Shown here: piece by piece, positions 11,146-35,700 of the stretch
How positions within the stretch are numbered: the stretch's first letter is position 1
How the letters are laid out: every line of letters begins with the position of its first letter
Notes under the pieces: model-generated
Told to the model about the DNA's origin: nothing
Databases searched by the model: none
What the model saw: the letters and a program-made list of their open reading frames with translations, nothing else
Assembly (NCBI RefSeq): GCF_036365525.1
Contig: NC_090382.1
Coordinates: forward strand, 109,774,372-109,838,371
Source of the DNA: Heterodontus francisci
Taxonomy: Eukaryota
Direction: 5' to 3'
DNA: 64,000 nucleotides
Position numbers and translations under genes: made by a program

Positions 11146-14100
11146 TATGATATCTCCTGGTTGTTTTTTTGGTTCTGGTTCCCGTAAGTTAGAAATAATC
11201 ACACTTTAAACTTGGAAAGGCTTGAGCTCTTTGTTTAATCATTCAGTCACCACGTTGTCTGATGTCGGACTGCCCCAGGGGCTGGTTTCCTGTTACACGT
11301 CACATCACTCTCTAGTGCAGCCTTGAATGTGGCCCCCACGGAATACTTACACATAACAGTTAGTTCCTAGCACTTTACAGATAGTATAACGATCTATAAC
11401 ATGCCTCTTTCTTTAAAAACATAATGCCCTTATATCAATATAACTGTCCCAGTCATTAACTTTTCTTTAAACTAAAGATTACCAACTGACGTTTGGAAAT
11501 AATCTGAACCTCTTTTTAGAGTCTTTTATAGCATGTATTCTTTTCTAAAAATATTATTCACGGTATCGCTTAGGTGGTAAGATGTTGTGCCTTCATCTTG
11601 TAGATTTGGCATTTGTTGCTGTCAGTGGTGAGTTGGCACACTGCACAGGCGATGTTGTGCCACTTGCTGGTGGTGATGTTGCTGTTGTCTCGCTGGATAG
11701 TGATGTTTCCGGTGTTGTTGATGGTCTTTTCTGTAGTTCCAGCTCAGGTGTAGGTTGAATATGGATTCTGTTCCTTCTCATTTGGTTACCGGTTTCCGTC
11801 TCAATGATATATGACCTTGGAGTCTCAGCTTCACCAACAACTATTGCTGGGCTCCAACATGATTGGATCCTGTACGTGTACAGTTTGTCCTTTCAACAAC
11901 TCGGGTAGGGATTTAGCATCCTTGTTGAAGTGTTGCTCTCTTCTTAGCTGTGCTTCAGTGAGTTGTTGTCTCACTTCCTCCTGGTCGCTTGGCAGAGTTG
12001 TCTTCCACTTTCTTCCATTCAACAGCTCTGCAGGTGATTTCATGTCAGCCTTGAGAGGTGTGGATCGGAGTGACAATAAGGCCAGATTTGGGTCTTCCTT
12101 TGTCTCTTGGCATTTCACAAGTGTTCTTTTGAACATCTGGACATGTCCTTCTGAAAATCTGTGTCCCCGTGGGTACTGTGATGATGAGGTGATGTTGTTG
12201 AACCCATACTGGTCAGCGAATTCCTTAAATTCTGTGGATGTAAATTGGGTGCCATTGTCACATATTAACCTTTCAGGAATCCCTTGCTCAGCGAACGGAA
12301 CTTGTACTGCTGAGATTATTGTTGTGGCTCTCAAGTCTTTCACCTTTGGGATAAAAGGGAACTTTTGAGTCGTAGTCTGCGATTGAGGTATCATTCTTGA
12401 TTATATGTGAATAAATCGACTCCTACAGTATGCCATGGTCTGGGTTGTATTTCAGTAGCTATCATCTCTTTTTGCTGTGTGTTTCTGTACTTCTGGCATA
12501 CATTGCATGTAGACACCATATTTTCAATATCTTTGTATATGCCTATCCAGTACACAGCTGATTTGGCTCTGAGCTTACACCTCTCCATTCCCATGTGGCC
12601 TTTGTGTATCTTTTGGAGAAGTTCTTCCTGCATTGTTTTGGGTCTGATTATTCTGGATCCAGTCAGCAGAACACCATCTTGCAGTGAGATGTCATCTCTG
12701 ATAGACCAGTACTGCCGTATTGCTGGCTGTGTTTGCTGTATCTTATCGGACCATCCTTGGACCACTTGCTGAGACAGCACCTGTAACTCCTCATTGCTGG
12801 TCTCATCTCTAATTTGACTAAGTTTCGGTGGTGTTACGTTCACTAGGTGATGAATCTTTATGTCTAGATCTTCAATCTCGTGTTTCTCCTGTGGCGACAA
12901 CCAAGATAGGGTGTCTGCCAGCACCATTTCTCTTCCTGGCTTGTATTTCAGAGTGAAATCGTAACTGTGAGGTCTTGAGTAACCTCTGCAGTCTTGCTGG
13001 TGCTTTACATAGATTTTTCTTGTAGATCTGCTCCAGTGGACGATGATCACTCTCCACTGTAAGTTTTCTCCCATAGAGATATGTGTGGAACTTCTCACAT
13101 CCATACACGACTGCCAAAAGCCCTCTCTCTACATTTGCATATCTTGTCTCAGCTGATGTCAGGGCTTTGAACACTATTGGCTATTGGCTTTCCCTCTTGT
13201 ACCAGGGCTGCTCCCAGTCCTTTTGTGGAAGCATCTACTTGCAGAGTGACAGGTTTCTTTCTGCTGGAGTATGACAGACTTGTCTCCTTGCATACTACCT
13301 TTTTGAGTTTGTTGAAACTCCTGTCGTGTGACTTTGGTACTCTACATCTACTTTCATCAGCTCCTGCAGGTTTGCTGTGAATTCCAACATGTGCGGAATG
13401 AAGGAGCTCATGATTTGGAAATCAAGCTAAGGAAACTTCTCAACTCTGTCTTATCTCTTGGGGCTTCTATCCACGAGATGGCTGAGATTCTTTCAGGACT
13501 CTGCTTGATTCCATCAGGTGTGTACACCATTCCGAAGAATTGGCATTCTGTCACTTTCACAATGCATGTGGCTGCGTTTAGCTTAATCCCAGCTTTCCTG
13601 GTTCTCTCCATAGCTTCATGTAGATGTTGTCATGATCTTTTCTATCTGCACCATATATCTGGATATCATCAGCTATGCTGTCTGCTCCTTTGCATCCCCT
13701 GTATGTCTCGTCTAATTTCTGTTCGAACACATCCTGGCTCACTTTGAGGCCAAAAGTTAAACACAGGAATTTGTACCGTCCAAAGGATGTGTTGAATGTT
13801 GTCAACAGTGAAGATTCTGCGTCTAGCTTCACATTCCAGTAGCCATTTCTGGCATCAAGCTTGCTGAAAACTTTTGCCCCTGTCAGTGCTGGTGTGATGT
13901 CTTCCAGTGTTGGAATAGGGTAGCAATCCCTCTTTATTGCTTGGTTAAGATCTTTGCGATCTAGACAAATTTTTTTTTTTGCTTTCTCACCACAAGAGAA
14001 TTTACCCAATCTGTAGGCTCTGTGACTCTGGCGATCACCTTCTTTTCTTCCATTTCTTGGAGCTCTCTTTTAAGCTTTCCTTTTAGTTCTATTGGTACTT

Positions 14101-21245: not shown

Positions 21246-24200
21246 TGTAGGATGTGGGAGGTAAGGGTCACCACTTGTGTCCTTGCTGACTTCACCTGTG
21301 AGAAGTGCACCCAACTCCAGCTCCTCACAGACCGCGTTAGGGAACTGGAGCTGGAGCTGGATGAACTTCGGATCATTCAGGATGCAGAGGGGGTGATAGC
21401 GAGTAGTTATAGGGAAGTAGTGACACCTAAGTTACAGGATAAAGGTAGCTGGGTGACCGTCAGGGGAGGGAAAGGGAATAGGCGCACAGTGCAGGGATCC
21501 CCTGTGGCCGTTCCCCTCAATAATACGTATACCGTTTTGGATACGGTTGGGGGGGTGACCTACCAGAGGAAAGCCACAGTGGCTTTGGCACTCTGGCACT
21601 GAGCCTGGCTCAGTGGCTCAGAAGGGAAGGGGGGAGAATAGGAGAGCGATAGTGATAGGAGATTCAATGGTTAGAGGAACAGACAGGAGATTCTGTGGTC
21701 GCGAACGAGACTCCCGGATGGTATGTTGCCTCCCGGGTGCCAGGGTCAGGGATGTCTCAGATCGAGTCTGTAGGATTCTTAAGGGGGAGGGGGAGCAGCC
21801 AGAGGTTGTGGTACACATCGGTACCAATGACATAGCTAGGAAAAGGGATGAGGACCTGAAAAACGAATATAGGGAGTTAGGTTGGAAGCTGAAAGGCAGG
21901 ACGAGCAGAGTAGTAATCTCAGGATTGTTACCGGTGCCATGTGCTAGTGAGGCTAGAAACAGGGAGCGAGTGCAGCTGAACACGTGGCTACAGAACTGGT
22001 GTAGGAGGGAGGGATTCAGATATGTGGATCATTGGGATACCTTCTGGGGAAGGTGGGACCTGTACAAGAAGGACGGGTTGCATCTGAACTGGACGGGCAC
22101 CAATATCCCGGGCGGGAGGTTTGCTAGAGCTCTTCGGGAGGGTTTAAACTAGTTTGGCAGGGGGATGGGAACCGGAGCCACGGATCAGTGGATGGGGTAG
22201 CTGTTGAACAGGCAGATACAGAGTGCAGAGAGTCTGTGAGGAAGGTTAGACAGTTGACAGGGCAAGGTTGCAGCCAGTATGATGGGTTGAAGTGTGTCTA
22301 TTTTAACGCAAGAAGTGTCAGGAATAAGGGTGATGAACTTAGAGCATGGATCAGAACTTGGAACTACGATGTTGTGGCCATTACGGAAACATGGATATCT
22401 CAGGGGCAGGAATGGATGTTGGATGTTCCGGATTTTAGATGTTTCAAAAGGAATAGGGAGGGAGGTAAAAGAGGTGGGGGAGTGGCACTGTTAATCAAGG
22501 ATAGTATCACAGCTGCAGAAAGGGAGGTCGTCGAGGAGGGTTTGTCTACTGAGTCATTATGGGTGGAAGTCAGAAACAGAAAAGGAGCAGTCACTTTGTT
22601 GGGAGTTTTCTATAGACCCCCCAATAGCAACAGAGACACAGAGGAACAGATTGGGAGGCAGATTTTGGAAAGGTGCAGAAGTAACAGAGTTGTTGTCATG
22701 GGTGACTTCAACTTCCCTAATATTGATTGGAATCTCCTTAGTGCAAATAGTTTGGATGGAGCAGTTTTTGTCAGGTGTGTCCAGGAGGGTTTCCTGACTC
22801 AATATGTAGATAGGCCGACTAGAGGGGAGACTATGTTGGACTTGGTGCTTGGCAACGAACCAGGCCAGGTGGCAGATCTCTCGGTGGGAGAGCATTTCGG
22901 TGATAGTGATCACAACTCCCTGACCTTTACTATAGTCATGGAGAGGGACAACAGCAGACGGGATGGGAAAATATTTAATTGGGGGAGGGGGAATTACAAT
23001 GCTATTAGGCAGGAACTGGGGAGCATAAATTGGGAACAGATGTTCTCAGGGAAATGCACGACAGAAATGTGGAGGTTGTTTAGGGAGCACTTGCTGCGAC
23101 TGCTGGATAGGTTTGTCCCGATGAGGCAGGGAAGGGATGGTCGGGTGAAGGAACCTTGGATGACAAGAGATGTGGAACAGCTAGTCAAGAGGAAGAAGGA
23201 AGCTTACTTAAGGTTGAGGAAGCAAGGATCAGACAGGGCTCTAGAGGGTTACAAGGTAGCCAGGAAGGAACTGAAGAATGGACTTAGGAGAGCTAGAAGG
23301 GGACATGAAAAAGTCTTGGCGGGTAGGATTAAGGAAAATCCCAAGGCGTTCTACACTTATGTGAGGAACAAGAGGATGGCCAGAGTGAGGGTAGGGCCGA
23401 TCAGGGATAGTGGAGGGGACTTGTGCCTGGAGTCGAAGGAGGTAGGGGAGGTCCTAAATGAATACTTTGCTTCAGTATTCACTAGTGAGAGGGACCTGGT
23501 CGTTTGTGAGGACAGCGTGGAACAGGCTGATATGCTCGAACAGGTTGAGGTTAAGACGGAGGATGTGCTGGAAATTTTGAATGATATGAGGACAGATAAG
23601 TCCCCGGGGCCAGACGGGATATACCCAAGGATATTACAGGAAGCGAGGGAAGAGATTGCTGCGCCTTTGGCAATGATCTTTGCGTCTTCACTGTCCACTG
23701 GAGTAGTACCGGATGATTGGAGGGTGGCAAATGTTGTTCTCTTGTTCAAGAAAGGGAATAGGGATAACCCTGGGAATTATAGACCAGTCAGTCTTACGTC
23801 GGTAGTGGGCAAATTATTGGAGAGGATTCTGAGAGACAGGATTTATGATTATTTGGAAAGGCATGGTTTGATTAGAGACAGTCAGCATGGCTTTGTGAGG
23901 GGCAGGTCATGCCTCACAAGCCTTATTGAATTCTTTGAAGATGTGACAAAACACATTGATGAAGGAAGAGCAGTGGATGTGGTGTATATGGATTTTAGCA
24001 AGGCGTTTGATAAGGTTCCCCATGGTAGGCTCATTCAGAAAGTAAGGAGGCATGGGATTCAGGGAAAGCTGGCTGTCTGGATACAAAATTGGCTGGCCCA
24101 TAGAAGTCAGAGGGTGGTAGTAGATGGAAAGTATTTAGCATGGAGCTCGGTGACCAGTGGTGTTCCACAAGGATCTGTTCTGGGACCTCTGCTCTTTGTG

Positions 24201-25149
24201 ATTTTTATAAATGACTTGGATGAGGATGTGGAAGGCTGGGTTAGCAAGTTTGCCGATGACACGACGGTTGCTGGAGTTGTGGATAGTGTGGAAGGCTGGT
24301 GTAGGTTGTAACGGGACATTGACAGGATGCAGAGCTGGGCTGAGAAGTGGCAGATGGAGTTCAACCTGGAAAAGTGTGAAGTGATTCATTTTGGAAGGTC
24401 GAATTTGAATGCGGAATACAGGCTTAAAGACAGGATTCTTGGTAGTGTGGAGGAACAGAGGGATCTTGGGGTCCATGTCCATAGATCGCTCAAAGTTGCC
24501 ACCCAAGTTGATAGGGTTGTTAAGAAGGCATATGGTGTGTTGGCTTTCATTAACAGGGGGATTGAGTTTAAGAGCCGCGAGGTTATGCTGCAGCTCTATA
24601 AGGTCCTGGTTCGACCACACTTGGAATATTGTGTTCAGTTCTGGTCGCCTCATTATAGGAAGGATGTGGAAGCTTTAGAGAGGGTGCAGAGGAGATTTAC
24701 CAGGATGCTGCCTGGACTGGAGGGCATGTCCTACGAAGACAGATTGAGGGAGCTAGGGCTTTTCTCATTGGAGCGTAGAAGGATGAGAGGTGACTTGATA
24801 GAGGGGTACAAGATGATGAGAGGCATAAATAGAGTGGATAGTCAGAGACTTTTTCCCAGGGTGGAAAGGGCTATTACCAGGGTGCATAATTTTAAGGTGA
24901 TTGGAGGAAGGTTTAGGGGAGATGTCAGAGGTAGGTTCTTTACACAGAGAGTGGTGGGTGCGTGGAATGCACTGCCAGCGGTGGTAGTAGAAGCAGATAC
25001 ATTAGGGGCATTTAAGCGACTCTTGGATAGGTACATGGATGATAGTAGAATGAAGGGTAGGTAGTTAGTTTGATGTTAGAGTAGGTTAAATGTTCGGCAC
25101 AACATCGTGGGCCGAAGGGCCTGTACTGTGCTGTACTGTTCTATGTTCT
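21246..25149 (+). mobile_element. Near full-length young CR1 (HER1-type) LINE: ORF1 Zn-finger/leucine zipper + SGNH esterase; ORF2 APE-RT
   Basis: ORF1 has CEKCTQLQLL..LELEL and esterase motifs GDSMVR, HIGTND and DGLHL. ORF2 (22188-25064) has FNARS, GDFN, SDH, QGSVLGP and FADD with one in-frame TAA at 24309-24311. Tail CTGTTCTATGTTCT. Confidence 0.95.
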
Positions 25150-26396: not shown

Positions 26397-28246
26397 CTTG
26401 GATGAGTGCAGCTCCAACAACACTCAGGAAGTTTAACACCATCCAAGAAAAAGCAGCCCTGCTTGATCGGCACCTGATCCACCACCTTGAACATTCACTC
26501 CATCCACCACCGACGCGCTGTGGAAATTGTTTCAGTTGGTACCACCCATGGTCAGAAGTACTTCTTTACAGTAAATGATTATCAACTGGAACAACAATAA
26601 TGGTTGATGAAGTCTGGGACAGCAGTTAGAATGTAGAACTTGTTACCACCTGAAGTAGTTGAGGCAAAAAGCATTGATGCCTTTCAGGGGAAGCTAAATA
26701 AACCCATGAGGGTGGGAGGAAGCTGGCATGGATCAGTTTGGCTGAATTCTCTGTTGTAATTCTATATAAATGTGAGATGATGGAGGATGGGGAAGCAGGG
26801 TTATTGGAACCTTTTGAAATCAAAGTCACATGTTCTAGTTTAACACCAACTTATGTTAATTGAACTCACCCTTAAAGGTAAATGTATGCTAAACTGTCTT
26901 GCAGTCAATGTGTTTTTGATCAGTCTGAAATAATGGTTAGGAATATTCCATGTTTCTTGTCCATCTGCCTCTGGTTTCTCTTCCTAGAGATCAAGAAAAA
27001 GGTTTCAGTGTGGAGTGCTCTTCCTATCAGCAATAGTGTTGATTTTTGCCTTTATCACTTATAGATTCATCTTCCAAATTTCGCAAAACATTCAAAGCTC
27101 TGCTACCTGCATCCTGTTCCACACACAGCCCCATTCCTTTGACAAAATTGGTTCCCTATCTCCCCTCAAATTGAATATAACGTAAGAAATAGGAACTGGA
27201 GTAGGACATTTGGCCCTTTGAGCCTCCTCTGCAATTCAATAAGGTCACGGCTGATGAGCTACCTTAAAGCCATCTTCCTGCACTATCCTCATATCCTGAA
27301 TGCCCTTAGTATGCAAAAATCTGTTGACCTCTGAATTGAATGTACTCAACGACTGAGGATCCATAGCTTGAATTTAATGTTCTTGTCCACAAATCCCACC
27401 CTACCTCGGCATCCTTTTCCAGCCTTCTGTATCTGCCCATCCTCCAGTCCTTTTGACATCGCCCTACTATGGCTACTTCCTTCCAACCTACTAATGGATG
27501 GCCTCGTTCTTGGACCTTATTGAATAACAGCTGCTGCGGAAAAGCCGTAAGTGGAGTTACTCAACTGCAGCAGACTCAACCTTTTCATTAAATGTCACAT
27601 GATCTGGCATCACAGTCAGAATGTCATGTGATCAAATCTTCAGGAGAACCTCTAACCTACATTGGCAACCTTATGCTACAATATATATCAATGCAATCTA
27701 TATTAATGACTTATGGAGTGACTGAGTGTCATGTACCAAGTTTGTTGACGATATAAAGCTAGGTTGGAAAGAAATCTAAGAGGACACAAAGAGTCTGCGA
27801 AGGGATAATGGCAGGTTACGTGAGTGGGCAACAAGGTGGGAAATGTGAGGTTATTCACTTTGGTAGGAAGAATAGAATACAATGAATATTTTTAAATGGT
27901 AATAAACTATGAAATGCTGGTGTTCAGAGGGATTTGGGTGTCCTTGAATAGGAAACATGCAGACAGAAAACAAGTCGGAGGGCTAATATTATGTTAGTCT
28001 TTATTCCGAGCAGGCTTGAGTACAGGAGTGAGGAAGTCTTGCAGCATTGTACAGGGCTTTGGTGAGACCAGATCTGAAGTAATATGTACAATTTTGATCT
28101 CCTTGTGGAAGGAAGGATATACGTGCCTTAGATGGGGTGCAATGAAGTTTTACTTGAGTGATTCCAATGGTTGTCCTATGAGGAGAGATTTAGTAGAATG
28201 GGCCTACATTCTCTGGAGTTCAGAAGAATGAGAGGTAATCTCATTG

Positions 28247-28295
28247 GCGCCGGCTTTAGCTCAGTGGTTACTTCGATTTCATTCAAATCACTTTA
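28247..28295 (+). ncRNA. Vault RNA 5' fragment (retrocopy)
   Basis: GCCGGCTTTAGCTCAGTGGTTACTTCGA closely matches the conserved vertebrate vault RNA 5' stem/box A (mammalian GGCYRGCTTTAGCTCAGCGGTTACTTCGA). The vault box B and 3' stem are absent. Confidence 0.8.
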
Positions 28296-28636
28296 GGGCG
28301 GCACAGTGGCGCAGTGGTTAGCACCGCAGCCTCACAGCTCCAGTGACCTGGGTCCAATTCTGGGTACTGCTTGTGCGGAGTTTGCAAGTTCTCCCTGTGA
28401 CTGCGTGGGTTTTCGCCGGGTGCTCTGGTTTCCTCCCACAGCCAAAGATTTGCAGGTTGATAGGTAAATTGACCATTATAAATTGTCCCTAGTATAGGTA
28501 GGTGGTGTGGGGATGTGGTAGGAATATGGGATTAATGTAGGATTAGTATAAATGGGTGGTTGATGGTCGGCACAGACTCGGTGGGCCGAAGGGCCTGTTT
28601 CAGTGCTGTACCTCTAAATAAATAGAAAAAAATAAA
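28296..28636 (+). mobile_element. HE1-type SINE, full length
   Basis: GGGCGGCACAGTGGCGCAGTGGTTAGCAC head, CR1-like tail and A-rich end. Confidence 0.9.
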
Positions 28637-29184
28637 AATCTCATTGAAACATAAGATTCTGAGAGGGTTTGACAGGGTAAATGCTGTTTCCCCTGTCTGG
28701 AGTGTCTAGAACTAGGGGGGCGTAGTCTCAGCATAAGGTGTTGGCTGTTTAGGACTGAGATAGGAGAAATTTCTGCACTCAGATGATTGTGAATCTTTGG
28801 AATTCTCTACCTCAGAGGACTGTATGTTTTTGAGTATCTGCAAGGCTGAGATTGATAGATTTTTGGACTCCCAAAGAATCTAGGAATATGGGGATTGGGT
28901 GGCAAAATGGAGTAGAGGTCAAAGATCGGCCAGGATCTGATTGCAGAACAGGCTCGAGGGGCCTAATGGGCTAATCCTGTTCCCACTTCATATGTTCCTA
29001 TGTTCATAGGTTTCCGGTCACTCCATTCTTAGAGGATAGAACTTGCAGTCATAGCAGCTCATAACCTTTCTTTTATAAGTGCCACAGCGGAACAGAATTA
29101 TTTTATACCAAAACAAAATACTGTGGATGCTGGTAACCTGAAATAACATTTAGCTGTTAGTTTGACACAGAAGCTGGTCCTCCC

Positions 29185-29344
29185 ATTTCTATAGGGGGCG
29201 CTATGATTTTCGAAAGGCCCTCCAATTTCAGGGTGCCTCTTGTCCGCTCCACACTATCATTGGCGCGGGGGCTCGGCTCGGTTGACGGTGGCCAGGCGGG
29301 CTCCGTGCAACAGCTTGGTGTCGGGCGGCTGGAGAGGAGTCAGG
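29185..29344 (+). promoter_or_regulatory. zmat2 CpG-rich promoter/5'UTR
   Basis: Local CpG enrichment, CCAAT/ATTGG boxes (~29222, ~29259), an AGGGGGCGCT motif (29193-29202), and YY1-like GATGGCG at the start codon. Confidence 0.55.
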
Positions 29345-29362
29345 ATGGCGTCGGGGAGCGGG
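29345..29362 (+). CDS. zmat2: Zinc finger matrin-type protein 2, coding exon 1 (MASGSG)
   Basis: ATGGCGTCGGGGAGCGGG|gtgagt matches the ZMAT2 N-terminus. Confidence 0.9.
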
Positions 29363-29497
29363 GTGAGTCTGAGGGCCGCTGCTGGTTGTTGCGAGTAACT
29401 GGCCGCCGGGTTTATGTGGTGTGGAGGCCTCGGAACTGCCGACTGCGATAGTCCCGGCCTCCGCCAACAGTTGCCCCGCAATAAACAAACATCAACC

Positions 29498-32400
29498 GGA
29501 GGGAGGGTAACTGGAGGGAGGACGGAGGGAGAATGGAGGGAGGGTAACTGGAGGGAGAGCGGAGGGAGGGTAACTGGAGGGAGAGCGGAGGGAGGGAGGG
29601 TAACTGGAGGGAGAGCGGAGGGAGGGAGGGTAACTGGAGGGAGAGCGGAGGGAGGGAGGGTAACTGGAGGGAGAGCGGAGGGAGGGTAACTGGAGGGAGA
29701 GCGGAGGGAGAATGGAGGGAGGGTAACTGGAGGGAGAGCGGAGGGAGGGTAACTGGAGGGAGAGCGGAGGGAGGGAGAACGGAGGGAGGGTAACTGGAGG
29801 GAGAGCGGAGGGAGGGTAACTGGAGGGAGAGCGGAGGGAGGGTAACTGGAGGGAGAGCGGAGGGAGGGTAACTGGAGGGAGAGCGGAGGGAGGGAGAGCG
29901 GAGGGAGAGCGGAGGGAGGGAGAGCGGAGGGAGAACGGAGGGAGGGTAACTGGAGGGAGAACGGAGGGAGGGTAACTGGAGGGAGAACGGAGGGAGGGTA
30001 ACTGGAGGGAGAGCGGAGGGAGGGTAACTGGAGGGAGAGCGGAGGGAGGGTAACTGGAGGGAGAGCGGAGGGAGGGTAACTGGAGGGAGAGCGGAGGGAG
30101 AATGGAGGGAGGGTAACTGGAGGGAGAGCGGAGGGAGAACGGAGGGAGGGTAACTGGAGGGAGAGCGGAGGGAGGGAGAACGGAGGGAGGGTAACTGGAG
30201 GGAGAGCGGAGGGAGGGTAACTGGAGGGAGAGCGGAGGGAGGGTAACTGGAGGGAGAGCGGAGGGAGGGTAACTGGAGGGAGAGCGGAGGGAGGGTAACT
30301 GGAGGGAGAACGGAGGGAGAACGGAGGGAGGGAGAACGGAGGGAGGGTAACTGGAGGGAGAGCGGAGGGAGGGAGAATGGAGGGAGGGTAACTGGAGGGA
30401 GAGCGGAGGGAGGGTAACTGGAGGGAGAGCGGAGGGAGGGTAACTGGAGGGAGAGCGGAGGGAGGGAGAGCGGAGGGAGGGTAACTGGAGGGAGAGCGGA
30501 GGGAGGGTAACTGGAGGGAGGGAGAATGGAGGGAGGGTAACTGGAGGGAGAGCGGAGGGAGAACGGAGGGAGGGTAACTGGAGGGAGAGCGGAGGGAGAA
30601 CGGAGGGAGGGAGAACGGAGGGAGAGCGGAGGGAGGGAGAACGGAGGGAGGGTAACTGGAGGGAGAGCGGAGGGAGGGTAACTGGAGGGAGAGCGGAGGG
30701 AGGGTAACTGGAGGGAGAGCGGAGGGAGGGTAACTGGAGGGAGAGCGTAGGGAGAACGGAGGGAGGGTAACTGGAGGGAGAACGGAGGGAGGGTAACTGG
30801 AGGGAGAACGGAGGGAGGGTAACTGGAGGGAGAATGGAGGGAGGGTAACTGGAGGGAGAGCGGAGGGAGAACGGAGGGAGGGAGAATGGAGGGAGGGTAA
30901 CTGGAGGGAGAGCGGAGGGAGGGAGAATGGAGGGAAGGTAACTGGAGGGAGAGCGGAGGGAGGGAAGGTAACTGGAGGGAGAGCGGAGGGAGGGAAGGTA
31001 ACTGGAGGGAGAGCGGAGGGAGGGAAGGTAACTGGAGGGAGAGCGGAGGGAGGGAAGGTAACTGGAGGGAGAGCGGAGGGAGGGAAGGTAACTGGAGGGA
31101 GAGCGGAGGGAAGGTAACTGGAGGGAGAGCGGAGGGAAGGTAACTGGAGGGAGAGCGGAGGGAGGGTAACTGGAGGGAGAGCGGAGGGAGGGTAACTGGA
31201 GGGAGAGCGGAGGGAGGGTAACTGGAGGGAGAGCGGAGGGAGGGTAACTGGAGGGAGAGCGGAGGGAGGGTAACTGGAGGGAGAGCGGAGGGAGGGTAAC
31301 TGGAGGGAGAGCGGAGGGAGGGTAACTGGAGGGAGAGCGGAGGGAGGGTAACTGGAGGGAGAGCGGAGGGAGGGTAACTGGAGGGAGAGCGGAGGGAGGG
31401 TAACTGGACCGAGAGCGGAGGGAGGGTAACTGGACCGAGAGCGGAGGGAGGGTAACTGGACCGAGAGCGGAGGGAGGGTAACTGGACCGAGAGCGGAGGG
31501 AGGGTAACTGGACCGAGAGCGGAGGGAGGGTAACTGGACCGAGAGCGGAGGGAGGGTAACTGGACCGAGAGCGGAGGGAGGGTAACTGGACCGAGGGTAA
31601 CTGGAGGGAGGGAGAGCGGAGGGAGGGTAACTGGAGGGAGGGAGAGCGGAGGGCGGGTAACTGGAGGGAGAGCGGAGGGCGGGTAACTGGAGGGAGGGCG
31701 GGTAACTGGAGGGAGGGTGGAGGGAGGGAGAGTAACTGGAGGGAGAGCGGAGGGAGGGTAACTGGAGGGGGAGCGGAGGGAGGGTGGGTAACTGGAGGGG
31801 GAGCGGAGGGAGGGTGGGTAACTGGAGGGGGAGCGGAGGGAGGGAGGGTAACTGGAGGGGGAGCGGAGGGAGGGAGGGTAACTGGAGGGAGAGGGGAGGG
31901 AGGGTAACTGGAGGGAGAGGGGAGGGAGGGAGGGTAACTGGAGGGAGAAGGGAGGGAGGGTAACTGGAGGGGAGGGAGGGTAACTGGAGGGAGAGCGGAG
32001 GGAGGGAGGGTAACTGGAGGGAGAGCGGAGGGAGGGAGGGTAACTGGAGGGAGAGCGGAGGGAGAGGGTAACTGGAGGGAGGGCGGAGGGAGGGAGGATT
32101 ACTGGAGGGAGGGTAACTGGAGGGGGCGCGGGGGGAGGGGGCGAGTAGTGGGGGAGCTGGAGGGAGGTGCGAGAGCTGGAGTGGGAGCGGAGGGAGGGTA
32201 ACTGGAGGGGGAGCGGGGGGAGGGTATCTGGAGGGGGAGCGGGGGGAGGGGCGAGAGCTGGTGGGGAGCTGGAGGGAGGGGCGAGAGCTGGAGGGGGATC
32301 GGAGGGAGGGTAACTGGAGGGGGAGCGGGGGGAGGGTAACTGGAGGGGGAGCGGGAGGAGGGGCCAGAGCTGGTGGGGGAGCTGGAGGGAGGGGCGAGAG

Positions 32401-32690
32401 CTGGAGTGGGAGCGGAGGGAGGGGAGAGAGCTGGGGCGAGAGCTGGAGGGGGAGGGCAGGGAAAGGAGAGTGCTGGAGGGGAGGGAGGGGAGATAACGAG
32501 TGAAAACGGGGGAGGGCATAACGGGGGGAGAGCGGGGACGGGGAATAATTGGCGGGACAGCGAGGGGATAACGAGGGAGAGTGGAGGGTGGGTAACTGGA
32601 GGGAGAGCCGAGATGGGGATAATGAGTCAAAAGGGAGGGGGGAGTGACTGGTGGGAGTGCGGAGAGGGTGGGGGGTGGTCGATAACTGGA
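29498..32690 (+). repeat. Purine-rich minisatellite, ~26-bp unit GGAGGGAGGGTAACTGGAGGGAGAGC
   Basis: Directly visible tandem array with variant blocks; degenerate after ~32100. Confidence 0.95.
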
Positions 32691-32759
32691 GAGGGAAATA
32701 AATAAAAAAGGGGCCACTATTATTTCTCATTGTGAAATGTTTTCGGAAATGTCTGAACA

Positions 32760-35700
32760 GGCAGGGGCTCTTGAGAAGGTTGAAAGAAGCACTGATAGAG
32801 GTCTTTAAGATTAGAAAAGGCTTGATAGAGCAGGCGTAAGGATGATGTTTCCAGCTGTGGGTGAGTCCAAAGCTAGGAGGACATAAATATAAAATAGTTC
32901 CAATGAGGATTTCAGGAGAGGCTTCTTTCCACCAAGCGTGGTTAGAATGTGGAACTTGGTACCACAGGGATAAGTTAAGGCGAATAGTGAAGATATATTT
33001 AAGGGGAAGTTTGATAAATAACTCTCGGGAGAAATGGAATAGACGGATATGTTGATGGGGTGAGAGGAGGCTTGTGTGGAACAAACATGGGCATAGACCT
33101 ATTGGGCTGAATGGCCTGTTTTTGTGCTGTAATGCCATGTTATGAATGGGCAAAAAATTGAATGTTTTCTTCTTTTGAACTATTTGTTTGGAATGAATCT
33201 CGTGCACTGTTATTGATTAAGAAAGGACAAACTTGTATTTCTGTAACTCCTGTCATGTCCTCTGGAAAATCCATAGTGCTTCTTAGCCAGGGAATCACTG
33301 TTATCGTGAAGGCAGATACGGCAGCTAAGCTGTGCACAGCAAGATCCCACAAGGGAGAAAACCCCTCAATTGCCAAGGGAATGAAAGGTCAAATTTACTC
33401 ATTAACATGTTAATAGAAGATACTTGCACAGAAAATTATACTTTGGTTGGGGAGGGGCAAGCAAATTCAAAAATGAGCCCTGATTCTAGTTACAAAAAAA
33501 TGAGGGATTTGAGCACAGGAACAGGATGAGGCCATTCAGCCCCTTGAGCCTGTTCCACCTGTTCAGTGAGACAATGGCTGATCTGCGACCTAACTCTACG
33601 TACCTGCCTTTGCTGCATATCCCTTAATACTTTTGGTTGACAAAAATCTTATAGATCTTAGTTTTAAAACTGATCCAGTTCATCTAGTATCAATTATTGT
33701 TTATGGAAGAGAGTTCCAAACTTCTAAAACCCTTTACATATAGAAGTGTTTCTTAATTTCCTTCCTGAAAGATGTGGCTCTAATTTTTCGAACTATGCCC
33801 CCTAATCTTAGACTCCCCAACCAGCAGGAATAGTTTCTCTCTATCTACCCTATCTGCTCCCCTTAAAACGAAGATCAAATCACCATTTAATCTTCTAAAC
33901 TCCAGGAAATACAACGCTTGTTTTTTGTAATCTCTCCTCGTAATTTAATCCTTGGAACTTATTTTGGGAGGGCAGGAATGCTTAGGTTTATCTGTAAATA
34001 TATATTGTATTCTCTGCACTAATTGCAAGAAAAAGATCATTTAAAGGGGCATTATGTTGAGATTTTGCTTTTCCCTAATCGCAGCGCTCAATCACATGTT
34101 TTAAAGCTGAAGCCTTGAGCTGTACACCATTGGAATTCAACAAGTATCTAGTCTCAGAAGGATGACAAAACAATTCAGCACATTGCAGATTTTACCCCCT
34201 CCCCATTTCCCGTAAATTGGAAGTTTTAGAATGAACATGTAAATCAGCTAAAATAAAAGCAAAATACTGCAGATGCTGGAAATCTGAAATAAAAAAGTGC
34301 TGGAAATACTCAGCAGGTCAGGCAGCATCTGTGGAGAAAGAAGCAGAGTTAAAGTTTCAGGTCTGTGACCTTTCATTAGAATTGAACTCAGCTATTTCAT
34401 CTGCCTTGGAGATCCCGGTAGGTGAACCCACAGCAACATAGGAGCAGGAGTAGGCCCTTCAGCCTGTCGAGCCTGCTCTGCCATTCAATTAGATCATGGC
34501 TGATCAGCTACCTCAGTGCCACTTCCCTGTGCTATCGCCATATCCCAATGGGAATTATTCATGGAGGCTTGGAGAATGAGAGACGTATTCTAAAATGCAT
34601 GAATGTTGCCTTGCAGTTGAATTTTGGAATTGTCAAGTTAAAAGCAGCCTGGTTATTTGGTACCCCATCCACTACTGGGGCACAGTGGCAGCAGTGTGTA
34701 CCATCTATGAGATGCACTGCAGCAAATTGCTAAGGTTTCTTCAACAGCACCTTTCAAATCCACAACCTCTACCACCTAAAAGGACAAGGGCATCAGATGA
34801 ATGGGAGATCCCCTCCAATTCACATGCCATCCTAACTTGGAATTATATCTTCATTCCTTCATTGTTGCTGGATTACAATCCTGGAACTCCCTCTCTCAGA
34901 GAGTACCTTCACCACATGGACTGCAGCGGTTCAAGAAAGTGGCTCGCCACCACCTTCACAAAGACAGTTAGGGATGGGCAGTAAATACTGGCCTTGCCAG
35001 CGACACCCACATCCCATGAATGAATTTTTTAAAAAAGCTTTATTAAAGGTGAAATGTTAGACTGGTGATTGAAGGGGACGAAAAGGACAATATGAAGCGA
35101 GAGGGAATGAATGAGGTGGGGTTGGTTAGTGGGCAATAAATGGGGAGGAAAACAAATAAGAGAAAGCAATAAATAGGGTACGGGGATAAAAGGGAAATAC
35201 CCTGAAATTTAACAAACGAATCAACACGCTGGGGCTCTTTTCTCCAGAAAGGAGAAGGCTGAGGGTTGACGTAATAGAGTTGTCTAAAATTATGAAGGGG
35301 TTCGATAGGGTAGAGAAGATATTTCCAATTGTGGGGGAGTCCAAAATTAGGGATTGTGAATATAAAATAGTCACTAATAAATCCAATAGGGAATTCGAGA
35401 AACTTCCTTATCCAGAGAGTGGTGAGAATGTGAAACTCCCTACCAAGGAGTAGTTGAGGTGACTAACATCGATCTATTTAAGGGAAAGCGAGATAAATGC
35501 ATGAGGGAGAAAGTAATAGAGGGTTATACTGAAGCACATAATGATGGCCAATCACAGGCTACAAAGGAGGTTTTATCATAGAAGGTAGACTCATTACAGC
35601 CCCTCCAGATGCCTCCCTACTTCATCTCCCTAGGTTTTACCCCATTCATACTGCTTCTATTGGCAGTACTCCCATATGCATCCCATTCCACAACCCTTCA

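Follow-up and report, generated by a model that had tools for sequence, protein, structure and literature searches.

The 64-kb stretch of the Heterodontus francisci genome analysed here (hereafter the window, C12:109774372-109838371) contains a full-length SINE that is preceded, inside one target-site duplication (TSD), by a 49-base leader resembling the 5' end of a vault RNA. The locus raises the question of whether this leader really derives from vault RNA and, if so, whether the element arose by a single event that joined two templates or belongs to a SINE family with a vault-derived head, the two possibilities put forward in an earlier note on this DNA.

The insertion and the origin of its leader

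The decamer AATCTCATTG was found on the plus strand at positions 28237-28246 and 28637-28646, with no third occurrence within the 64-kb window, and the two copies enclose 390 bases comprising the leader, the SINE body and an A-rich tail. On both sides lie the parts of an old, broken LINE in plus orientation, at 27950-28236 (left limit approximate) and 28647-29000 (right limit approximate), delimited by paralogous copies that align across the site and, for the 5' part, by reading-frame pieces. A Pfam search with the short reading-frame pieces of the 5' part gave no match. When the insert and one decamer were removed, the flanks aligned continuously with seven paralogous LINE records from six places (68-79% identity), one of them with a local gap in the alignment across the insertion site. 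Because these paralogous LINEs align across the site without the insert, the decamer is a target-site duplication of 10 bp in an old LINE, and both the duplication and the LINE continuity described in the earlier note have been confirmed. A single TSD encloses head and SINE together, and none was found around the SINE alone. Reads and contigs from four of 24 listed runs, compared at likeness 87 over the insertion, showed joints skipping the insert in all four, with sides of 21-36 letters and other letters between them; these joints likely correspond to paralogous LINEs. No piece spanning the whole insertion was present among the four runs (X1, X9, X10 and X21), in which repeats swamped the reads.

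The last base of the 5' TSD copy (G at 28246) is also the base that precedes most vault genes. The leader (28247-28295, plus strand) is joined to the complete body of a putatively tRNA-headed SINE (28296-28615, plus strand), which we take to be HE1, followed by an A-rich short-repeat tail (28616-28636, plus strand) and by the 3' TSD copy (28637-28646, plus strand). According to the consensus that we assume for these motifs, the SINE has a box A-like motif of its own (28307-28317) and a box B-like motif (28351-28361), in which position 28354 is C instead of the T of most copies. No tRNA was called in the SINE by ARAGORN or Rfam, though box A- and box B-like motifs are visible. No such leader precedes the other full SINE copies in the window (4928 and 36944), as had been stated. 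The 3' end of the SINE matches the end of a LINE at 25090-25136 (84% over 49 nt), and this LINE, at about 21559-25140, contains esterase, endonuclease and RT domains, with the shared 3' end just beyond them. The host LINE and the mobilizing LINE are presumably of CR1 type, on the basis of the motif at the end of ORF2 and the domain content. Elsewhere in the window, the long ORFs at 29257-33216 correspond to a 26-bp minisatellite and not to a gene.

The Rfam analysis of the whole window gave nothing at the gathering score. With positions 28100-28800 the best match was Vault (22.1 bits, E 0.03), which falls below the gathering score of 34 bits because only the 5' half of the RNA is present. Full 5' and 3' stems of the Vault model (RF00006) above the threshold were not found in the leader, which is a fragment corresponding to nt 1 to 46-49 of a short-loop vault variant. 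It contains a box A (28257-28267), box B being absent, and its last bases (28293-28295) may come from the vault RNA, from the SINE or from untemplated addition. Comparison with the vault genes of this genome revealed that the leader shares 43 of 46 nt (44 of 49) with the gene at C12:109868336, itself scoring 62.7 bits with the Rfam Vault model. A stretch of 30 exact bases is common to the leader and vault genes (0 with the reversed-pattern control), and among 47 distinct vault gene starts the leader fits best this short-loop gene. The loop variant, allowing up to two mismatches, has exactly two matches in the 6-Gb genome, which are the window and the gene at C12:109868336. The leader, proposed earlier to be vault RNA from its 5' stem and box A, therefore matches a real vault gene beyond box A, and the search for a parental gene has yielded this donor, located 65.7 kb from the insertion.

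The head begins at the first base of the vault gene and includes none of the gene's upstream flank, which is the signature of an RNA. It differs from the best donor at 5 of 49 positions, more than the 3% end branch of the SINE, so that the true donor allele is gone or has drifted. An origin of the leader from a tRNA or from an upstream variant of HE1, which the earlier note had named as competing matches, was ruled out by Rfam (positions 28100-28800) and ARAGORN, which found no tRNA in or near the leader, by the headless HE1 copies and by the vault match itself. An in-place remnant of a vault gene was also discarded, as the flanks are continuous LINE and unlike those of vault genes.

The vault gene cluster and the dispersed vault and U6 pieces

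A cluster of vault genes starts 8 kb beyond the end of the window. Motif searches of the genome placed about 96 genes at 109.847-110.263 Mb (94 positions on the plus strand, a further gene in locus L138 and one minus-strand gene), and all 49 scored candidates passed the Rfam cut-off, with 56-68 bits, and lie on C12. Most of the cluster is built of units about 3.07 kb and 8.08 kb long, and 29 kb separate its last vault gene from the first protocadherin exon that follows. The donor gene of the head thus belongs to the protocadherin-linked vault locus, whose conserved synteny has been described (PMC7058938). In the same source, human has four vault RNA paralogues, and the validated genes of other species number one or two. 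No shark vault array was described in the literature found, nor any paper joining vault RNA and cartilaginous fish, and this cluster of about 96 genes will probably be more striking to vault RNA specialists than the chimera itself. All the 94 cluster positions checked run on into the vault 3' half (68 by motif, one divergent gene and 25 of 25 examined separately). A master copy of the element was sought over about 315 kb of the roughly 400 kb of the cluster, plus short stretches around the remaining 25 genes, and none was present at the 94 positions; a remnant lacking the 24-mer described below could escape this search. One cluster gene remnant (L093) abuts an antisense HE1, which indicates that strikes on vault genes at the DNA level do occur.

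A 24-mer from the vault 5' end, allowing up to three mismatches, had 110 matches genome-wide (one with the control), and 94 of the 100 matches listed lie in the cluster. About six of the 10 further matches were identifiable and about four stand outside the counts of dispersed pieces given here, as do heads with more than three changes in the 24 nt, which escape the search. Vault 5' motifs outside the cluster amount to at most about 20 genome-wide, versus 40,312 exact HE1 heads in the genome. Among the matches read, seven are dispersed vault 5' pieces, L069-L072 and L146-L148 being excluded because they share gene flanks. None of the seven has the vault 3' half and none is solitary, all of them being joined to SINE or LINE pieces.

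In addition to the window element (C12, vault nt 1 to 46-49 with a full HE1 and a 10-bp TSD), the dispersed pieces include two others with a complete SINE in the same orientation, L001 (C5, nt 1-44 with a full HE1, no definable TSD) and L066 (C5, nt 6 to 41-42 with a full HE1 and a 4-bp TSD). In L136 (C10), vault nt 1-43 are joined to a 3' piece of a 5'-truncated HE1 followed by an A run and a LINE end, with a TSD of about 5 bp, and in L061 (C32), nt 1-32 are followed by about 160 bases without assignment and a LINE end, with a 7-bp TSD. A divergent vault head is joined to a LINE piece in L067 (C5), and in L068 (C10) an antisense vault 5' piece lies head-to-head with a full HE1; neither has a definable TSD. 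Six of the seven pieces, all except the window element, are on other contigs, mostly with the same start base. A single-event origin is less sure for these six, since a long clean TSD was found in the window element only. An HE1 start within 15 nt of a given site has a rough chance of 2.5e-4 and was seen in three of the seven dispersed pieces.

These three SINE-joined heads do not behave as members of a family. A search with the junction (28247-28330) gave 346 candidates; of the 40 that were scored, the window and L001 alone cover the head, and a pattern consisting of the common vault loop plus the HE1 start was found only in L001 and L066. The sole further match extending into the leader, at C2:171829269 (query 25-84), was rejected because it is an HE1 without a head, its target site being similar to the leader by chance. 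The earlier note had held that variable junctions in this search would mean recurrent template switching, and variable junctions were the outcome. Diagnostic indels distinguish the three full HE1 bodies that follow vault heads, and a clade uniting them, named before the tree was built, was rejected in a tree of 18 bodies (p-AU 0.0008), a test that assumes a tree-like SINE history, yet SINE copies can recombine. The U6-headed locus L120 was left out of this tree, its HE1 being cut short at the 3' end. Three of 18 HE1 copies were located at the same LINE position, which reveals target-site re-use. The sequence ahead of HE1 starts is heterogeneous in the reads, with a loose-end agreement of 0.35 (514 contigs of X1 and 12,170 reads of X21). 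Because the 110 vault motifs lie mostly in the cluster, versus 40,312 HE1 heads, and the junctions are not shared, a vault-headed SINE family is absent from the H. francisci genome at the sensitivity used. The composite subfamily proposed as one alternative is accordingly not supported, the junction being single-copy, the HE1 variants different and no master having been found at the 94 cluster positions.

U6 was used as a control, since it should behave like vault RNA if capture is a general behaviour of the machinery. Three of the 30 U6 loci examined (48 matches) were directly joined to the HE1 start (L114, L120 and L135). An exact U6-HE1 pattern gave six matches, two already in this set and four new ones with 5'-truncated U6, so that at least seven U6-HE1 chimeras are present in the genome. 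Vault and U6 yield similar, small numbers of chimeras.

Mechanism and alternative explanations

The element in the window is a single-copy chimera of a vault 5' half and a complete HE1-type SINE, probably produced in one event through template switching by a CR1-type RT. The LINE proteins would bind the SINE RNA through the 3' end that it shares with the LINE, nick the old LINE copy and prime reverse transcription there. At the 5' end of the SINE, the RT would jump to a vault RNA and copy it up to vault nt 1. The vault RNA could be entered where a 5' half, either cleaved or still in transcription, has its free 3' terminus, or at the unpaired U/A-rich central loop. Repair would then leave the 10-bp duplication, which is observed, around both parts. 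The single-event alternative of the earlier note fits this arrangement, with head and SINE in one TSD. The process has recurred independently, with different vault positions (nt 41-42, 43, 44 and 46-49) and different SINE variants, and likewise with U6. The junctions are in or bordering predicted unpaired parts of the vault central domain, which would fit a jump onto a 5' half that was cut or not yet completed, as well as entry at the loop. The antisense piece in L068 would fit twin priming. Vault genes use upstream elements (PMC7058938), and the window copy is likely dead because it has no daughters, has neither the vault upstream flank nor a vault box B and carries an altered SINE box B; the product would be a dead end. 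The 5' end of the hybrid folds no better than shuffled sequences (z 0.06), in contrast to two vault genes (z -3.8 and -2.3), and nothing found here suggests a function for the chimera.

Among the alternatives, RNA ligation before retrotransposition survives best and is nevertheless unlikely. A vault 5' half cleaved to a cyclic phosphate would be joined to the SINE RNA by an RtcB-type ligase, and the hybrid would be retrotransposed. Pol III transcripts carry a 5' triphosphate. RtcB ligation depends on a 5'-OH, and a 5' triphosphate strongly reduces it (PMC6789731), so that the SINEs of the window, L001 and L066, all complete to the first base, would be poor substrates. Ligation has been demonstrated in the case of U6/L1, and the same study regards it as possible for small RNAs truncated at the 3' end (PMC6789731); the heads of all seven dispersed pieces are 3'-truncated in the central region and L136 joins a 5'-truncated HE1, as ligation would predict. 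It leaves unexplained the closeness of the donor, at 66 kb, and the antisense L068. From the sequence alone, template switching and prior RNA ligation are inseparable, and the three SINEs without any 5' loss are the reason for favouring switching.

The closeness of the donor gene bears on both the template-switching reading and a further alternative. A random site would lie this close (65.7 kb) to the donor with a probability of 2e-5, which rises to 1.5e-4 when any of the seven pieces may count and to 6e-4 with the whole cluster as target, figures that concern one case noticed afterwards. Along with the size of the vault array, this closeness is a more surprising feature than the chimera itself. 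As a tentative extension of template switching, which we regard as possible but somewhat short of an even chance, the RT working at a site 66 kb away would have jumped onto the nascent or just-released Pol III transcript of that vault gene, and the locus of about 96 genes would feed 5' halves into SINEs about as often as U6 does. Capture of a nascent or local transcript would account for the nearness of the donor as well as for the absence of the vault 3' half. If true, this would be a genomic record of template switching at the integration site using an RNA made nearby, and vault 5' halves would be the raw material for a vault-headed SINE in some shark or ray.

The same closeness would also be expected if the new SINE cDNA had copied 49 bases of the nearby vault gene DNA while its 5' end was joined, and flanking DNA is a frequent source of the additional 5' bases in L2-type inserts (PMC4245944). 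This DNA-level capture is considered improbable, however, as the head starts at the first base of the RNA without upstream flank and six of the seven dispersed pieces are on other contigs, mostly with the same start base. Slightly less probable still is an origin in two events, in which either a vault 5' fragment was in place before an HE1 landed at its 3' end, or a vault gene interrupted by an HE1 gave a read-through transcript that was then retrotransposed. HE1 is abundant and re-uses target sites (the three of 18 copies at one LINE position), and one cluster gene has been struck (L093); against this stand the sole TSD, with none around the SINE alone, the lack of solitary vault 5' fragments among the seven pieces and the absence of an interrupted sense master from 94 genes, three junctions requiring three lost masters. 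Least credible of all is a vault-headed family amplified from a master and transcribed from vault box A and HE1 box B, a pair that in principle might serve as a type 2 promoter, since the three full-length elements of the same design have no junction common to any two of them, their HE1 bodies are not one clade, vault 5' motifs outside the cluster are scarce and the sequence before HE1 starts in the reads is heterogeneous.

Comparison with known chimeras and SINEs

Template switching by a CR1-type RT, the reading preferred here, has close relatives among chimeric retrocopies. In the literature searched, which lacked most subscription papers, neither a vault-SINE chimera nor a vault-headed SINE was found. 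Vault RNA is known to be reverse transcribed and inserted, as in the case of a human retrocopy of vault RNA that bears poly(A) and a TSD (RetroSeeker, PMC11727581), and the vault pseudogenes VTRNA2-2P and VTRNA3-1P have been reported (PMC7058938); unlike the window element, the human retrocopy is a stand-alone L1 product with poly(A). HE1 is listed as a V-SINE with the partner LINE HER1 in sharks and rays (table in PMC3747384). The SINE described here, assigned to HE1 by a name that we assume, agrees with it in the LINE-shared 3' end, the short-repeat tail and the very high copy number, and putatively in a tRNA-type head, given its box A- and box B-like motifs; the window element differs in its extra vault head.

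Chimeric retrocopies of U6, U3, U5, 5S, tRNA, Y, 7SK, 7SL and 28S RNA with LINE-1, and of snRNAs with Alu, have been described (bioRxiv 10.1101/2025.02.02.635956 and PMC6789731). They are single-event fusions as proposed for the window element, and U3 is sense and truncated as the vault heads are. Antisense 5S and tRNA pieces comparable to L068 were put down to twin priming (bioRxiv 10.1101/2025.02.02.635956). Unlike the vault-HE1 element, these chimeras use the mammalian L1 machinery, and vault or vtRNA is absent from the main text of the bioRxiv report, as is vault from PMC6789731. The addition of U1 to SINEU-2 at variable junctions, set apart from true families (Kojima 2015, PMC4494074), is similar in that small-RNA 5' additions with variable junctions are read as repeated independent events and as a route to new SINE heads; in contrast to vault-HE1, SINEU has masters and many uniform copies.

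The nearest parallels are the U6-Mon-1 chimeras of platypus and the U6-AnolisSINE2 chimeras of anole, made through non-L1 LINEs and ascribed to template switching (Doucet et al. 2015, PMC4476161), in which a 5' Pol III RNA is followed in the same orientation by the SINE of a 3'-end-specific LINE, with a short TSD and few independent copies. The differences are that the partner here is vault RNA, 3'-truncated in the central loop and with a mostly intact 5' end, and that the LINE is presumably of CR1 type, a system represented in PMC4476161 by one unresolved U6 case in turkey. By its sequence features, the window element belongs to a known kind of chimeric retrocopy and does not establish a new SINE class. 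With it, vault RNA would join the RNAs captured as 5' partners by the machinery of non-L1, 3'-end-specific LINEs, and recurrent small-RNA/SINE chimeras, with vault and U6, are shown in a presumably CR1-type system. The set bears on the choice between switching and ligation, because three SINEs are complete to the first base and one case lies beside its donor, and it records, in the absence of amplification, the stage through which new SINE heads are proposed to arise.

HE1 chimeras and template jumps

At least seven U6-HE1 chimeras, in which the SINE is joined to U6 sequence, were found in the genome, at loci L114 (contig C13), L120 (C26), L135 (C1), L173 (C20), L174 (C27), L175 (C32) and L176 (C41). 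The U6 part is nearly full in three of them and 5'-truncated in the other four. Other U6 copies read continue into further, unassigned sequences.

A tripartite insertion was located on C10 (L136 1510-1680, G000:C10:55498109), where vault nt 1-43 are followed by a 3' piece of HE1, an A run and the 3' end of a LINE, and this arrangement may be a record of two template jumps.

Target position and neighboring elements in the window

Of the 18 full HE1 copies examined, 3 are inserted at almost one and the same point, close to where the LINE ORF2 ends. They are the vault-headed element in the window (target site 28237-28246), the copy in L066, which also carries a vault 5' piece (about 1965, minus strand), and that in L072 (about 3196, minus strand), and a preferred HE1 target site at this point is possible. 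A fairly complete LINE interrupted by stops, with a GDSL esterase ORF1, endonuclease and reverse transcriptase, is present at window 21559-25140; its 3' end is common to the SINE, and this LINE is a candidate for the partner family.

Other features of the window are an LTR-element remnant (12391-13128, minus strand), whose ORF fragment encodes an integrase zinc-binding domain (PF17921), and a minisatellite (29498-32500) in which a G-rich 26-bp unit is repeated about 96-110 times. The minisatellite generates ORFs of 868-1319 codons, and their extensin match is spurious.

Vault RNA genes and vault-like loci

Seven divergent vault-like genes are dispersed on C32 (L069, C32:56293570), C34 (L070, L071, L146, L147 and L148) and C48 (L072). 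They have 100-600 bases of flank in common, with 66-99% identity among them, and are therefore copies of a second vault-like locus that arose by duplication of DNA. The score of L070 is over the Rfam Vault cut-off (35.6 bits), and those of L146 and L069 are under it.

The tandem vault RNA gene cluster (G000:C12:109846702-110262745; L003-L065, L073-L105, L138 and L150-L168) begins 8 kb beyond the window end and directly precedes the protocadherin cluster. Its repeat units are of about 3.07 and 8.08 kb, and all 49 cluster candidates scored passed the Rfam Vault cut-off. A lone divergent gene (L062 8330-8432, G000:C12:109846804, minus strand, 55.7 bits) is oriented away from the array, and upstream of it lies sequence related to the one that precedes the short-loop gene (C12:109868336), the best donor match for the vault head. 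Within the cluster, the vault gene at L093 (G000:C12:109965385-109965771) lacks its 5' part, and its 3' third is joined to an antisense HE1. The genome assembly holds about 96 vault RNA genes in this cluster; a review gives 1-4 validated vault genes per species (PMC7058938).
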